Shown here in pieces: positions 18,985-24,943 of a DNA stretch of 34,601 bases. A program made the translations under genes and the position numbers. The notes beneath the pieces were generated by a model. The model saw nothing but the letters and a program-made list of their open reading frames with translations, had not been told where the DNA came from and ran no database searches. How positions within the stretch are numbered: position 1 is the stretch's first letter; each line of letters starts with the position of its first letter. Origin of the DNA: Candidatus Methanogaster sp. (lineage in GTDB: Archaea; Halobacteriota; Methanosarcinia; Methanosarcinales; Methanogasteraceae); contig QBUV01000094.1 of NCBI GenBank assembly GCA_013572355.1, positions 1 to 34,601 of the forward strand. The letters run 5' to 3'.

Positions 18985-19380
18985 ATGGCCAATAGAAATA
19001 TTATAGAAAGGATACTTGGTCCGCCGATGCCGAAAAAATCTGTAGACCCTGATAAGTATCACAATATCAGTCTCGATGACTACGATGAGGTCATAGAAGA
19101 TGCGCCGGCGGAGACGTACATACGTGTTGCGGAACTGAGCAATCTCGATGGAATTCCCGATCTAAGAAAGGAGATATACGACGGAAATATCGTGATTGTC
19201 GATATCTCGCTGATAAAGCGGGACAAGATGATACTCGAACGCGCGCTTCGTGACCTGCGTGATGTGGTAAGTGATGTTCATGGGGATATTGCAGGACTCG
19301 GCGAGGATATGGTGATCACGACTCCGACAGGCATCAAGATCGATCGTACACGGCTTGGTGGGCAGACAACGGCATATTGA
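18985..19380 (+). CDS. sepF: Cell division protein SepF
   Basis: Amphipathic N-terminus, EIYDGNIVIVDIS, GDIAGLGE..VITTPTGIKIDR; AGGTGA RBS. Confidence 0.9.
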   Translation: MANRNIIERILGPPMPKKSVDPDKYHNISLDDYDEVIEDAPAETYIRVAELSNLDGIPDLRKEIYDGNIVIVDISLIKRDKMILERALRDLRDVVSDVHGDIAGLGEDMVITTPTGIKIDRTRLGGQTTAY

Positions 19381-19381
19381 T

Positions 19382-20776
19382 ATGAAGATCAACAGCCCTC
19401 TGCAGGCTTACGAATACCTGCCGAAGACGAACTGCGGGGACTGTGGGGAACCGACATGCATGGCGTTTGCCTCGCATCTGATCGATCGGTCGATGAAGGC
19501 AGAGGAGTGCCCGCCCCTGCTCGGTGAAGAATATAACGATAATTATAACACGCTCGTCGATCTGCTTGCGCCTGAGATACGCGAGGTCGTAATCGGAACC
19601 GGCGACCATGCGATCACCATCGGCGGGGATGATGTGCTGTATCGGCACAAGCTGACCTTCTTTAATAAAACCGCCTTCGCTTATGACGTGTGGGACACGA
19701 TGAGCGAAGAAGAACTGGTGGGGCGTGTCAACGATATCCAGAACTACAAAAAATTTTATATCGGCGAATTCCTGACGCTTGACGCGGTTGCGATCAGATG
19801 CACGTCCGGTGATGCGGATCAGTTCGCGCAAACGACCGCGAAGGTGATGGAAACGACCGAACTGCCGCTCCTACTCTGCTCGCTTGATCCGGAGATTCTC
19901 GGTGCAGGACTTGCCGTTGCCGCCGATCGAAAGCCGCTGATCTATGCTGCGACCACAGAGAACTGGCGCGATGTTGCAGAGCTTGCACTCACACATAACG
20001 TCCCTGTGGTGCTCTCTGCGCCAAACGATCCGGATGCCTTGAAATCGCTTGCACTGACGTTTGCGTCGGCGGGCATCACCGATCTCGTGCTCGATCCGGG
20101 GACGTTTCCGACAGACGGGCTGCGGGACTCCTTTGAGAACTTCCTGAAGATCAGGCGTGCAGGGATCGATGGGCAGACCGATATCGCATATCCGCTGATG
20201 GCGGTTCCCATGACGGTGTGGGAACGTTCCGATGGCATAAGTGCGGCATACTGGGAGAGCGTGCTTGCATCGATCTTCACGGTCAGGTACGGGGACATCA
20301 TGATCATGCACAGCATCGAGCCGTACTCGCTTCTTCCCGAACTGCATATCAGGGACACGGTCTACACCGACCCGAGAAAGCCGGTGATGGTCGATGCAGG
20401 TGTCTTTGAGGTCGGATCGCCTGACCGGAAGTCGCCTGTCTTCGTAACAGCGAACTTTGCGCTGACATATTACACGGTGGAGAGCGATCTGGCGTCCAAT
20501 GACATCGACTGCTATCTCTGCGTGGTGGACACCGACGGCATCGGCGTCGAGGCTGCGGTAGCGGGCGGACAGCTCACTGCGGCAAAGATCAAGGCTATGT
20601 TCGATTCGGCCGGTTTTGATGTGAAGGAGAAGACCGACCACGGCACAATGATCCTTCCGGGACTTGCTGCACGGCTGCAAGGGGATGTTGAGGATGAAAC
20701 CGGGCTTACCGTGATGATCGGACCTCCTGATTCAGGGCAGATCCCGCGGTGGATGGAATCGAAGTGGGAGTCGTAA
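19382..20776 (+). CDS. cdhE: Acetyl-CoA decarbonylase/synthase complex gamma subunit (corrinoid Fe-S protein large subunit)
   Basis: LPKTNCGDCGEPTCMAFA...CP Fe-S motif, IGGDDVLYRH, YTDPRKP, TANFALTYYTVESD. Confidence 0.95.
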   Translation: MKINSPLQAYEYLPKTNCGDCGEPTCMAFASHLIDRSMKAEECPPLLGEEYNDNYNTLVDLLAPEIREVVIGTGDHAITIGGDDVLYRHKLTFFNKTAFAYDVWDTMSEEELVGRVNDIQNYKKFYIGEFLTLDAVAIRCTSGDADQFAQTTAKVMETTELPLLLCSLDPEILGAGLAVAADRKPLIYAATTENWRDVAELALTHNVPVVLSAPNDPDALKSLALTFASAGITDLVLDPGTFPTDGLRDSFENFLKIRRAGIDGQTDIAYPLMAVPMTVWERSDGISAAYWESVLASIFTVRYGDIMIMHSIEPYSLLPELHIRDTVYTDPRKPVMVDAGVFEVGSPDRKSPVFVTANFALTYYTVESDLASNDIDCYLCVVDTDGIGVEAAVAGGQLTAAKIKAMFDSAGFDVKEKTDHGTMILPGLAARLQGDVEDETGLTVMIGPPDSGQIPRWMESKWES

Positions 20777-20781
20777 GAAGA

Positions 20782-20800
20782 TTTCACTTTCACCCCGCTC
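20782..20800 (+). promoter_or_regulatory. Upstream element TTTCACTTTCACCCCGCTC, copy 1, ahead of TATA TTTATATA (20813-20820)
   Basis: Identical 19-mer also at 23231-23249, at matching spacing to a TATA box. Confidence 0.6.
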
Positions 20801-20842
20801 TTGGATTACTGATTTATATATGTGGGCTGATGTACATATCAA

Positions 20843-20915
20843 GGACTTGCACAGCCCTACACGATTCTGGGCGGACCTGCAGATTCGTCCCCTCTTTTTC
20901 TTTTTTTATTTTTTT
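20843..20915 (+). ncRNA. Candidate small structured RNA (or attenuated uvrC leader)
   Basis: TATA at 20813-20820 predicts a start near 20843; nested pairings GGAC/GTCC, TTGCA/TGCAG, GCCC/GGGC; T-tract 20895-20915. Confidence 0.45.
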
Positions 20916-21010
20916 AACAACCTCAGCCAGACCCCTGATCCGTAAGATTCATTGCTAATCCCGCTCGCAGTATATCTACCAGACCGCGTGTAAGCGACTC
21001 TGAAAGAAAC

Positions 21011-22561
21011 ATGATCGATCCATCAGGACTCCCGGAAGACCCGGGATGCTATCTCTTCAAAGATGCCGCTGATAACATAATCTACGTGGGGAAAGCAAAG
21101 AATCTCAAAAAACGCGTCCATAGTTACTTCCAGAGACGCGAGCGCGACCCAAAGACCGAGGTCCTCGTAGAAAAAGCAGATTCTGTCGATTTCATCGTAA
21201 CGGACAGTGAACTTGAGGCGCTGATCCTTGAAAACACCCTCATTAAGCGACACCAGCCGAGATACAACATCGACCTTAAGGATGCTAAGAGTTACGCATA
21301 TATCCATATCACGGACGAGGAATTTCCGCGTATCGGGATTGCACGGAGGTTGGGCGGAAGCGGCAGTTTCTTTGGTCCGTTTGTCACTGCAAAGGAGCGC
21401 GACTATATCCTTTCGGTCGTTAAGAAGACGTTTAAGCTGCGGTCATGTCGCAGACTCACGAAACGGGCGTGTCTCAGGTACCATATCGGGTCGTGCAGCG
21501 CGCCGTGCATCGGAAAGATCAGCACCGAAGAGTACCACAAGCAGGCCTCCCGGGCGCAGTCGCATCTCCGCGGGAATACGAGCGACCTGATCCGGTCTTT
21601 ATCGCAGGAGATGGCAGAAAAATCGACGGAACAGGAATTTGAGCGGGCGTTAGAACTTAGAAACCAGATCGCTGCCATCGAACACCTTTCCGAGCGCCAG
21701 TATGTGGATCGGCAGAAGAAGTACGATGAGGATGTCGTCAACTACGTGAAAAGCGATTGTAAGGTCTATCTCATGCTCTTCAACGTGTACAAGGGCATGC
21801 TCGCAGACAAGCAGGAGTTCGTCTTCGATGAGCGCGAGGAGGTGATCGACGAGTTCCTTGTGCAGTACTACTCAGAGCACGACCCGCCGCCCGAACTGAT
21901 CCTGCCCTCGCAGGTAAGTGATGTGATCCCGGATTTCCTATCCGAAAGAAGCGGGCGGCGGGTCAGGATCACGGTCCCGAAGCGGGGGGAGAAGAAGAAG
22001 CTGCTTGATCTTGTCGGGAAGAATATCGAGATTTCATTCTTTGGCGGGCAGATCAAACTTGAGGCGCTGAAGAACCTTCTCGGGCTTTCCCGCGTCCCCT
22101 CTGTCATCGAGTGCTTTGACATCTCCCACCTCTCAGGCACGTCGATGGTCGCATCGATGGTGCAGTACAGGTCAGGAAAGCCGGATAAACGGAATTACAG
22201 GCGGTTCAAGATCAGGACGGTCGAGAAGATCGACGATTTCGCTGCCATCGCGGAGGTCGTGCGGAGGCGGTACTCACGCCTGAAAAGGGAAGCTGGCGAA
22301 TTCCCGGATCTGGTAATCATCGATGGCGGGAAGGGGCAGCTATCGGCAGCCCGCGGGGAGGTTGGAAGACTCGGACTCAGGATTCCAATCATCTCCATCG
22401 CCAAACGTGAGGAAGAGATCTATGTGCCGGGTCTCACCCATCCCCTGCCTGCTGACCGGAAAGACAAAGCATCGCTCTTTGTTCAGGAGATCCGGGATGA
22501 GGCGCACCGGTTCGCAGTCGCGTACCACCGGCTGCTCAGGCGAAAAGCGGTGGTGTCATGA
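21011..22561 (+). CDS. uvrC: Excinuclease ABC subunit C (no C-terminal HhH domain)
   Basis: GIY-YIG PGCYLFK/IIYVGKAKNLKKRV, Cys cluster, UVR FERALELRNQ, ECFDISH, IIDGGKGQL, RDEAHRFA. Confidence 0.95.
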   Translation: MIDPSGLPEDPGCYLFKDAADNIIYVGKAKNLKKRVHSYFQRRERDPKTEVLVEKADSVDFIVTDSELEALILENTLIKRHQPRYNIDLKDAKSYAYIHITDEEFPRIGIARRLGGSGSFFGPFVTAKERDYILSVVKKTFKLRSCRRLTKRACLRYHIGSCSAPCIGKISTEEYHKQASRAQSHLRGNTSDLIRSLSQEMAEKSTEQEFERALELRNQIAAIEHLSERQYVDRQKKYDEDVVNYVKSDCKVYLMLFNVYKGMLADKQEFVFDEREEVIDEFLVQYYSEHDPPPELILPSQVSDVIPDFLSERSGRRVRITVPKRGEKKKLLDLVGKNIEISFFGGQIKLEALKNLLGLSRVPSVIECFDISHLSGTSMVASMVQYRSGKPDKRNYRRFKIRTVEKIDDFAAIAEVVRRRYSRLKREAGEFPDLVIIDGGKGQLSAARGEVGRLGLRIPIISIAKREEEIYVPGLTHPLPADRKDKASLFVQEIRDEAHRFAVAYHRLLRRKAVVS

Positions 22562-22632
22562 TCTTTCGCGGTTTATAGTGTGACGTTTATAGCCGTTGAA
22601 ACCGAACAACCCTTCTGAAGTTCAGACTGACC

Positions 22633-23286
22633 ATGTTAGAACACTCAACCCACCCCGGCTACCAGATCCACCTCGCAGATACCGTCTACGAACCGGCAGA
22701 GGACTCGTACCTCTTGATCGATGCCGCACTAAACGAGATCGCGGGATCGAATCGGCGCCTGCGCATCATCGAGATCGGCACCGGATCAGGGATCGTGACA
22801 GCGGCTATGATGCGAGATGCGCCGGAACACCGATACGCAGCAACCGACATCAGCCCCCACGCGGTAACCTGCGCCAGGGCAAACCGTGTGCCGGTTGTTC
22901 GTGCGGATCTCTTCAGAGGGATCGGGGGCAGATTTGATCTGATCATCTTCAATCCGCCGTATCTCCCAACCACACCAGCCGAGCGGGTCGATGGCTGGCT
23001 CGATCGTGCATGGAACGGCGGGGCTGATGGGCGGGCGGTCATCAACCGGTTCCTCAAACATGCGCCAGCATTTCTCGCAGACCGCGGAAGCATCCTGCTC
23101 TTGCTCTCGTCACTGACCGGCATCGAGGCGGTGCGTGAGCGCATGGCGTCGGTGGGTCTTCTGGTGTACGAGGTGGCGAGCATCCGATGCCCGGGCGAGC
23201 GGCTTGTGGTGCTGCGTGGTTCACATCCACTTTCACTTTCACCCCGCTCATGCCAAACGGTTAATACTCCCCCAAAAACAGTTTGA
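22633..23286 (+). CDS. HemK2/MTQ2-family (release factor glutamine) methyltransferase
   Basis: VYEPAEDSYLL, EIGTGSG, FNPPYLP, AWNGGADGR. Confidence 0.9.
   Translation: MLEHSTHPGYQIHLADTVYEPAEDSYLLIDAALNEIAGSNRRLRIIEIGTGSGIVTAAMMRDAPEHRYAATDISPHAVTCARANRVPVVRADLFRGIGGRFDLIIFNPPYLPTTPAERVDGWLDRAWNGGADGRAVINRFLKHAPAFLADRGSILLLLSSLTGIEAVRERMASVGLLVYEVASIRCPGERLVVLRGSHPLSLSPRSCQTVNTPPKTV
23231..23249 (+). promoter_or_regulatory. Upstream element TTTCACTTTCACCCCGCTC, copy 2, ahead of the radA promoter (TTAATA 23261-23266)
   Basis: Identical to 20782-20800; embedded in the 3' tail of the hemK2 ORF. Confidence 0.65.
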
Positions 23287-23297
23287 TCTAGATTATC

Positions 23298-24275
23298 ATG
23301 AACGAAATATCCATAGAGGAACTTCCGGGCGTTGGTCCTGCGACCGCTGAGAAACTGAAGGATGCGGGATTCAATTCAATCGAGGCGATTGCTGTTGCGT
23401 CGCCTTCAGAACTTGCAGCAACCGCGGAAATCGGGGAATCGACCGCGGTCAAGATCATCGCAGCAGCACGAACCTCTGCCGATGTCGGCGGATTCGAGAC
23501 CGGAGATGCCATCCTCGAGCGCAGGAAGGAGATCGGCAAACTCAAGCTCGGATGCACCGAGGTTGACAACATGATGGGCGGGGGATTTGAAACACAGGCG
23601 ATTACAGAGGTGTATGGCGAGTTTGGTTCCGGAAAGACGCAGATAGCACATCAAATTGCAGTAAATGTGCAGCTGCCGGTTGGCTTGGGTGGACTGAACG
23701 GATCTGTAATCCTCATCGACACAGAGAACACATTTCGACCGGATCGGATCGCAAGCATGGTGGAAGGGGCGGCAAAGAGATACGAAACCGAGTATGATCC
23801 CGAGGAATTCCTGAAAAACATCCATGTTGCCCGTGCATACAACTCCAACCATCAGGTCCTTCTCGTGGACACCGCATCCGAACTTGCAGATTCGCTCCGG
23901 GATACCGATAAGCCAGTACGCCTCTTGATTGTGGATTCGCTGACAGCGCACTTCCGGGCAGAGTATGTCGGCAGGGGCACGCTTGCTGATAGGCAGCAGA
24001 AATTAAACAAGCATCTGCACGCCCTCATGCGATTTGGCGACCTGAACAATGCGATGGTCTTTATAACCAATCAGGTGATGTCAAAGCCGGATGCGTTCTT
24101 CGGCGATCCGACAAAGCCGATCGGCGGGCACATTCTCGGGCACACCTCGACATTCCGGCTATATCTGCGGAAATCGAAAGGTGACAAGCGGGTTGCAAAA
24201 CTGGTCGACTCACCCAACCTTCCGGACGGCGAGGCACTATACACAGTGACACCAGAGGGGCTATTCGATATATGA
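23298..24275 (+). CDS. radA: DNA repair and recombination protein RadA
   Basis: Hh[18 protein letters not shown], Walker [32 protein letters not shown]. Confidence 0.97.
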
Positions 24276-24943
24276 TCAAGGCTATTGCGATCGATATCGA
24301 TGGCACGCTGACGCACAATGACCGGAGCATCGACTGCCGCGCAGTGGAGTGCCTTCGCTCGCTCGATATCCCGATCGTGCTTGCTACTGGTAACGTGCTC
24401 TGCTTTGCAAGGGCGGCAGCAAAACTGATCGGAACCGGCGGGCAGATTATAGCAGAGAACGGCGGCGTAATCTCGCTTGAATATGATGGCAAGGAGTACT
24501 ACGGTGGCGATATCGATGCGTGTGAGCGTGCGTTTGATGCATTGACAAAACATCTCGGTGCACATATCCAAAAACTCGATTCAGAGTACAGGAAGACCGA
24601 GATAGCTCTTCGGAGGAACTTTGATGCCGCGGATGCGCGGCAGATCATTGGTGAGGACATCGAGGTTGTGGATTCCGGTTACGCCATCCATCTAAAGAGC
24701 AAGAATGTGGACAAGGGAACCGGACTCTTCCGGATAGCTGGTCTCATGGGTATCGATGCAAGCGACTTTGCTGCCATCGGGGACTCTGAAAACGATCTGC
24801 AACTGCTTGCCGCGGCTGGATTTGGGGTTGCTGTCGGAAATGCGCATCCTGCGCTTGCGGCTGCTGCCGATCTCGTGACCGCTGGCAAGTATGGCGCAGG
24901 CGTTGTCGAGGCGATCCGGTATCTGGCATCTTGCAAGATCTGA
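24272..24943 (+). CDS. Phosphoglycolate phosphatase, archaeal HAD type IIB
   Basis: DIDGTLT, ATGN, IAENGG, DKG, IGDSEND; ATGA overlap with the radA stop. Confidence 0.88.

Follow-up and report, generated by a model that had tools for sequence, protein, structure and literature searches.

The window considered here is a stretch of 34,601 nucleotides (contig QBUV01000094.1, positions 1 to 34,601, forward strand) of Candidatus Methanogaster sp. (assembly GCA_013572355.1), which carries a 19-bp sequence, TTTCACTTTCACCCCGCTC (hereafter the box), in two exact copies on the same strand. The first copy follows the 3' end of cdhD and opens a short intergenic unit that precedes uvrC, its start lying 229 nt before the uvrC ATG. 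The second lies in the last codons of a methyltransferase open reading frame (ORF), and starts 67 nt before the ATG of radA (Table 1). An earlier, sequence-only reading of this DNA had reported the repeat, its copies beginning 31 and 30 nt ahead of TATA-like sequences, and had proposed an activator-driven DNA-damage regulon joining radA and uvrC. Its description of the repeat is exact, and these are the sole two matches in the window.

The repeat is not due to chance, since only 0.01 matches to the 19-mer are expected at up to three mismatches, where the window holds these two sites alone, and since a count over 27 family genomes gave 82 occurrences of the 13-mer TTCACTTTCACCC and a single one of its reversed control. 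At least two matches to the 19-mer were found in none of 100 dinucleotide-preserving shuffles. The window's own genome (G000) is an incomplete metagenome-assembled genome (MAG), 85% complete, with 1.69 Mb in 226 contigs; over all of these, the exact 19-mer is found only at the two window sites, and the 18-mer lacking the first T has one further copy, at the end of contig C90. The core of the box, ACTTTCAC, is formed where two TTTCAC hexamers join, and a C-rich CCCGC(T/A)C segment follows. Upstream of radA, the box forms the 3' part of an extended series of four hexamers (TTCACA, TCCACT, TTCACT, and TTCACC, at 23220-23243).

Table 1. Features around the two box copies in the window.
Feature	Position	Strand	Remarks
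cdhD	19355..20776	+	Pfam CdhD, 470 bits; the small unit follows its 3' end in three genera
Box copy 1	20782..20800	+	Two TTTCAC hexamers, then CCCGCTC; promoter of the small unit; near-invariant in 30 aligned copies from 23 genomes
Small-unit TATA box TTTATATA	20813..20820	+	12 nt past the box; TTTATAT invariant in 30 copies
Predicted small RNA body, ~55 nt	20841..20894	+	Start inferred from the TATA position; three-part hairpin with a near-unvarying 11-nt loop
Oligo-T tracts, predicted intrinsic terminator of the small unit	20895..20915	+	T-tracts in all aligned copies
uvrC	21011..22561	+	Pfam UvrC domains; neighbour of the small unit
Small-domain methyltransferase ORF	22633..23286	+	Pfam; last codons span box copy 2 and the radA TATA box
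radA upstream element	23220..23249	+	Four hexamers and CCGCTC; last 19 nt are box copy 2 (23231-23249)
radA TATA-like box TTAATA	23261..23266	+	11 nt past the box, 32 nt before the ATG; GGTTAATAC or GATTAATAC kept in relatives
radA (RadA/Rad51 recombinase), gene under box copy 2	23298..24275	+	Pfam Rad51, 285 bits, and HHH_5

The genes that share the box were sought in the family to which the window belongs, an ANME-2 (anaerobic methanotrophic archaea), Methanogaster-like family. As many as 77 of the 82 occurrences of the 13-mer precede radA (22), RPA genes (2), xseA (4), or the body of the small unit (49), with a TATA box at a fixed distance; the other five stand at contig ends (2) or in apparent coding sequence without a TATA box (3). 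The scatter at gene 3' ends that the sequence-only reading had named as the contrary outcome, as a terminator or a miniature inverted-repeat transposable element (MITE) would leave it, is not what was found. A looser pattern, consisting of the proximal half-site TTCRCCCNRYWC, 8-13 nt, and a TATA-like hexamer, matched five times in G000 (the small unit twice, RPA, radA, and xseA) against zero for the control, and 104 times in the 27 family genomes against seven. These 104 matches, classed by our own reading of the matched strings, fall upstream of the small unit (44), RPA-type genes (22, of which 11 were checked by ORF and 11 were classed by promoter string alone), radA (21), xseA (6), recQ (1), and a uvrD-like gene (1), at a contig end (1), or elsewhere (8, about the control level).

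The genes concerned were identified by profile: two RPA paralogues match the replication factor A model NF005553 at 695 and 687 bits (cut-off 353), xseA matches Exonuc_VII_L at 323 bits, recQ matches TIGR01389 at 686 bits (cut-off 640), and a helicase fragment in one genome has a UvrD-helicase domain at 102 bits. The spacing to TATA boxes at repair genes, rpa included, had been put forward as a check of the sequence-only reading, and it holds, with the box co-oriented and 10-12 nt upstream of the TATA box at RPA and several other repair genes. In G000, xseA keeps only the TATA-proximal half-site, and recQ, which is cut by the contig end, has a box with two mismatches. Judged by this distribution, the box is a predicted promoter mark of radA, the two RPA paralogues, xseA, recQ, the uvrD-like fragment (in one genome), and a candidate small RNA gene.

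Several weaker candidates were set aside. Seven of the eight unclassed matches to the looser pattern were inspected (L172, L173, L175, and L177-L181, loci that include one site not seen otherwise), and they have either no distal half-site or no downstream ORF. Matches resembling the 11-mer on contigs C144 and C149 overlap or adjoin coding sequence and lack the TATA spacing, and were treated as chance or weak. A lone proximal half-site, CAGTTTCACCCCGCTC, about 100 nt before the rpS17e-dapA pair (C160:14412; L002:913), is probably not a working site, the nearest TATA-like stretch being about 50 nt away. Separately, a good box, TTCACTTTCACCCTGCTC, occupies the last 26 bases of G000 contig C218, with no gene visible, and a box likewise stands at a contig end in a relative (G014:C137:11764; L156). 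The recQ leaders of G000 (contig C6, L004:1034-1084) and of relative G001 (L169) contain a 16-codon upstream ORF between the box and TATA box and recQ; the two encoded peptides resemble each other and agree in their first four and last seven residues, and an AT-rich stretch precedes recQ.

Conservation upstream of radA, another check that had been proposed for this locus, is borne out. Of 73 radA loci, 67 could be compared (six had no upstream sequence), and the box, the spacer, and the TATA box are kept in all 20 loci of close relatives, whose RadA is 87-98% identical, the sequence 5' of the box being unrelated. The number of TTTCA(C/A) hexamers varies between two and five among these relatives (e.g., L008, L021, L028, and L163), and the proximal part and the TATA distance are fixed.

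At the scale of the phylum, 110 of the 111 genomes searched had a RadA, and 40 of them were picked to represent all 25 reported families, with 260 nt of upstream sequence each. The strict core ACTTTC[AG]C is found upstream of radA in 27 of these 40 genomes and in 19 of the 25 families, against 0/40 on the opposite strand, which served as the control because a tandem repeat of this kind reads almost alike when reversed. Where the TATA pattern matched, the core lies 15-20 nt upstream of it. High-GC (guanine-cytosine), halophile-like families have a double TTTCACTTTCA at radA, and several other families have ACTTTCACCCCGC(G/A)C. Among the 67 radA loci compared above, box-related sequences were also seen by eye in records of Methanothrix, Thermoplasmatota, and Hadarchaeota; our pattern had no match upstream of radA in the Methanococcales or DPANN-type records examined.

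The RPA gene provides a second case. Family f4, of the same order, has the core ahead of its best RPA homologue, about 95 nt from the ATG, in 11 of 15 genomes (opposite strand, 0/15), in the form ATACTTTCACC(C/T)(C/T)GCT followed by TTTATATA, and the same succession of ATACTTTCACC..GCT and a TATA box is found at both radA and the RPA gene of this family. The CCCCGCTC extension, which the sequence-only reading had held to be specific to the lineage, is shared more widely: sequences of the ACTTTCACCCCGC type stand before radA in several further families, and before the RPA gene of f4. The box would, on this evidence, be a local variant of an ancient element of radA promoters, common to most of the phylum and first noticed in Halobacterium. 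In the f4 RPA leaders (L266-L279), about 20-70 nt before the start codon, there is also an inverted repeat (GCCTCTC ... GAGAGGC-like), conserved among them and reaching to the ribosome-binding GAGG; it may be a leader hairpin controlling translation, and no such repeat was seen ahead of RPA in the window's family.

Box copy 1 belongs to a different kind of promoter, and is predicted to drive a family-specific small RNA gene rather than uvrC. The unit that it opens is about 135 bp long: after the box come a TATA box, some 55 conserved nt, and an oligo-T tract. The copy on C90 shares with site 1 the box, a 12-nt spacer, TTTATAT, the body of about 55 nt (after 15-20 diverged bases), and the oligo-T tracts, and its flanks are unrelated. 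A DNA search with 20782-20915 recovered the unit from 23 of 41 relatives, that is, from 22 of 24 genomes of the family and from 0/16 of the order's other families, with one to five copies per genome. Across an alignment of 30 copies, box and TATA box hardly vary, the next 20 nt or so are variable, and the body is highly conserved up to the T-tracts; because of this conserved-variable-conserved pattern, the unit is read as an independent gene with a promoter and a terminator of its own. A covariance model (R1) built from 33 unique copies matches the window at 20838-20903 with 81.8 bits and finds the unit in 24 of 26 family genomes; among 94 other genomes of the order, it gave two borderline matches (E 0.004-0.007).

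The body of the unit is read as a non-coding RNA because it has no ATG, and because the two G000 copies have no reading frame in common. No Rfam 15 family matched window positions 20000-24000 at E <= 1. The minimum-free-energy fold of the window copy is -14.9 kcal/mol, and 29 of the 33 unique copies fold alone into a three-part hairpin around the 11-nt loop, by our reading of thermodynamic predictions. RNAalifold on the 33 unique copies recovered only an invariant inner stem of 4 bp. Contigs from RNA libraries of four runs in four studies (X1, X2, X7, and X8) cover every bin of 20600-24400. Targets of the predicted RNA were sought through complementary stretches of 11 nt, and this line was dropped, as G000 has about 26 such non-self places where about 36 would be expected (our estimate), no more than chance gives.

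The genes 3' of the unit copies are mutually unrelated: uvrC in seven cases, a convergent TPR gene in five, and radical SAM, HsdM, resolvase, TGT, CarB, TldD, ArlH, and other genes besides. Synteny ties the window copy to the 3' end of cdhD in the genera g1, g2, and g3, where nine copies lie next to one and the same upstream protein cluster. In one relative, G003 (L164, C64:21000-25600; L104), cdhD and uvrC are separated by a 4.2-kb segment with a unit copy on either side, both in the same direction. Encoded in this segment are a TPR protein of 936 aa and a protein of 337 aa without known family, on the opposite strand, and a serine-recombinase (resolvase) gene follows the second unit copy; the window has a single unit copy and no such segment.

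These promoters, which are not homologous, share a short site made of direct repeats; it has the same orientation as a TATA box 10-12 nt further on, and is conserved far beyond the lineage. We consider it likely that the box is a cis-regulatory site of the recombination and single-stranded DNA (ssDNA) promoters and of the predicted small RNA gene, derived from the old radA element and serving a putative response to DNA damage or replication stress. The box would then sit just upstream of the TFB recognition element (BRE) and TATA region, at about -60 to -41 if transcription starts about 25 nt past the TATA box. A conserved DNA-binding protein would occupy the hexamers, possibly as several protomers side by side, as their 6-bp period and variable number suggest. 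Once bound, it could help recruit TBP and TFB and raise transcription after DNA damage or replication stress, as the analogy with Halobacterium suggests, and the predicted small RNA would be made alongside the repair proteins.

Several observations weigh against this reading, some of them touching the gene set and others the small RNA. The 27 family genomes are incomplete MAGs, so that the member list is partial; gene starts are heuristic, and half of the RPA-type sites were assigned without their ORF. No uvrA, uvrB, uvrC, or other obvious excision-repair gene was found in the box set, which is for this reason a recombination and ssDNA set and not a broad SOS-like regulon. For the RNA, the single-sequence z-score of the window copy's fold is only -0.92, and the hand-written three-part hairpin has no covariation support, with 86.4% of cells paired against 87.0% in shuffles. 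The RNA-library contigs are silent on starts, ends, strand, and level, and may hold DNA, and no conclusion is drawn from them. As for damage induction of the box genes, it is suggested by analogy with a single haloarchaeal study.

Part of this evidence would also fit a housekeeping or replication-coupled element, ensuring a high or cell-cycle-timed expression of RadA and RPA with no damage response. Every round of replication requires the ssDNA and recombination genes of this set, the excision-repair gene that was inspected (uvrC) has no box of its own, and the element is constitutively conserved at radA across the phylum. We regard this as rather unlikely, as the Halobacterium genes with the 11-mer were UV-B (ultraviolet-B)-induced (PMC2556686), and as xseA and recQ are not obvious replication-cycle genes. 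The box could also be the operator of a LexA-like repressor, bound to the hexamers and released after damage; the genes look like those of a compact SOS-type set, and the present results are compatible with either sign of regulation. Nevertheless, the direct repeats end 10-12 nt upstream of the TATA box, without overlapping it or the start site. Archaeal repressors usually overlap the BRE/TATA region or the start site, whereas sites just upstream of the BRE/TATA are typical of activators, and we regard a repressor as quite improbable.

The proposal made in the sequence-only reading, that one activator site co-regulates radA and uvrC and bears a lineage-specific extension, is very doubtful in this form. 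It drew on the same 19-mer standing upstream of both genes on the same strand, and it was right that the box flanks a repair gene in the case of radA; it fails for uvrC. Considering only loci with the 5' end of uvrC present, and inspecting 330 nt upstream, the unit is found in 8 of 10 genomes of genus g1, where some read-through of the T-tracts is possible, but in 0/11 genomes of the sister genera g2-g4, where no box was seen either. This result largely refutes the co-regulation of radA and uvrC. Across genera, the unit stays with cdhD and not with uvrC; the conserved small unit with its T-tracts intervenes between the box and uvrC, which has a TATA-like sequence of its own (GTATATC, 20970-20976), and the extension is present in other families. 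Because of the intervening unit and the absence of the box in g2-g4, uvrC is placed outside the box set, and appears as the downstream neighbour of the small unit in one genus rather than as a conserved member. The last seven bases of the box, CCCGCTC, recur 3 nt before the GTATATC of uvrC (window 20960-20976), in a region conserved within g1 whose spacing is unlike that of true box sites.

Finally, a mobile repeat or terminator scar, i.e., a MITE-like element or 3'-end motif with no promoter role, would account for the multi-copy 135-bp unit (1-5 per genome) at gene 3' ends and for the two copies flanking a 4.2-kb segment in one relative, but is scarcely credible, given that the box alone, without the unit, precedes radA, RPA, xseA, and recQ, always co-oriented and with a TATA box at 10-12 nt, that no terminal inverted repeat was seen on reading the two ends of the unit, and that unit copies are syntenic across genera.

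If the box is, as we favour, an activator site of the recombination and ssDNA promoters, a possible regulator is an Orc1-2-like protein. G000 has two Orc1/Cdc6 genes above the TIGR02928 cut-off (445 and 271 bits). Neither has the box-plus-TATA architecture within 260 nt upstream, and no Orc1/Cdc6 promoter class is found among the 104 family matches to the looser pattern. About 75 nt before the better-scoring of the two (contig C163, start codon 11067), TTTTCACTTTA abuts an AT-rich TTATTAAAATAAAA; this sequence is hexamer-repeat-like, without the usual TATA spacer, and may be part of an origin or of a promoter. A viral Orc1 is described by Chen 2023 (PMC10123103) as the first example of an Orc1 in the damage response of Euryarchaeota, and is the only euryarchaeal Orc1-type damage regulator that was found in the literature searched.

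The repeat is genuine and of biological meaning. For halophiles, the cis element had been published before; what the present results add is the presence of the box and its gene set in ANME-2 and Methanosarcinales, its breadth in the phylum, and the predicted small RNA gene specific to the family. No paper naming a binder of the haloarchaeal motif, or its wider conservation, was found in a search that covered few subscription journals and no supplements, so that such a report may exist, and the passages searched of two reviews (PMC7776575 and PMC7690668) contain nothing on the motif. These results bear on whether euryarchaea possess a transcriptional DNA-damage regulon, and on how it is controlled. 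As the core is found at radA in most families of the phylum, and at both radA and RPA in Methanosarcinales, including families with genetically tractable members, the question can be directly tested. They also bring to light a previously unlisted predicted small RNA with the promoter code of repair genes, in uncultured methane-oxidising archaea; to our knowledge, no search for one having been made, no damage-controlled riboregulator has been described in archaea. A far broader picture may be drawn, and we hold it to be unlikely as a whole: an ancient regulon for recombination and ssDNA repair (Halobacteriota, Thermoplasmatota, and Hadarchaeota) would have ACTTTCAC as its operator, homologous to the crenarchaeal ANTTTC, so that one factor, possibly an Orc1/Cdc6 paralogue, would govern a pan-archaeal damage response, to which the ANME-2c-type family would have recruited a small RNA of about 55 nt.

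Among known systems, the bacterial SOS regulon, defined by the LexA box, includes SOS-controlled small RNAs and small toxin genes. The box set resembles it in that one short site is common to genes for a recombinase, an ssDNA-binding protein, a helicase, a nuclease, and a predicted small RNA. It differs by the use of direct repeats upstream of the TATA box instead of a palindrome over the promoter, and by the lack of excision-repair genes; no LexA-like mechanism is implied.

In Sulfolobus, the second system that the sequence-only reading had cited, and correctly so, Orc1-2 binds ANTTTC, and this motif is needed for damage induction (Sun 2018, PMC6061795). The core ACTTTC fits this element, whose published 20-bp consensus continues with a purine (TTTCR), and the promoter-proximal placement is alike, theirs being required for damage-induced activation (PMC6061795; PMC12490963). 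The match is one of six bases, and so short a word is a weak criterion. The gene sets are unlike, the Sulfolobus regulon comprising ups, ced, tfb3, and orc1-2, without the repair enzymes of the box set. In Sulfolobales, orc1-2 carries the motif itself (a promoter probe in PMC12490963), whereas the Orc1/Cdc6 genes of G000 lack the box architecture.

The Halobacterium report that had been cited is also real: in Boubriak 2008 (PMC2556686), TTTCACTTTCA is described upstream of the TATA box of radA1, vng17, top6B, and vng280, all UV-B-induced in Halobacterium sp. NRC-1, with comparable motifs at the radA genes of further halophiles and of Methanospirillum, and it is proposed as the binding site of a regulator. 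Induction data concern the Halobacterium genes only, the element being known here from sequence, and the gene sets differ, with two RPA genes, xseA, recQ, and the predicted small RNA here, and top6B, vng17, and vng280 there (same source). A conserved CCCGCTC follows the motif here, unlike in Halobacterium. Nevertheless, the 11 bases of TTTCACTTTCA are found exactly at both window sites, they stand upstream of a TATA box as in the Halobacterium promoters described in PMC2556686, and radA is among the genes concerned in both.

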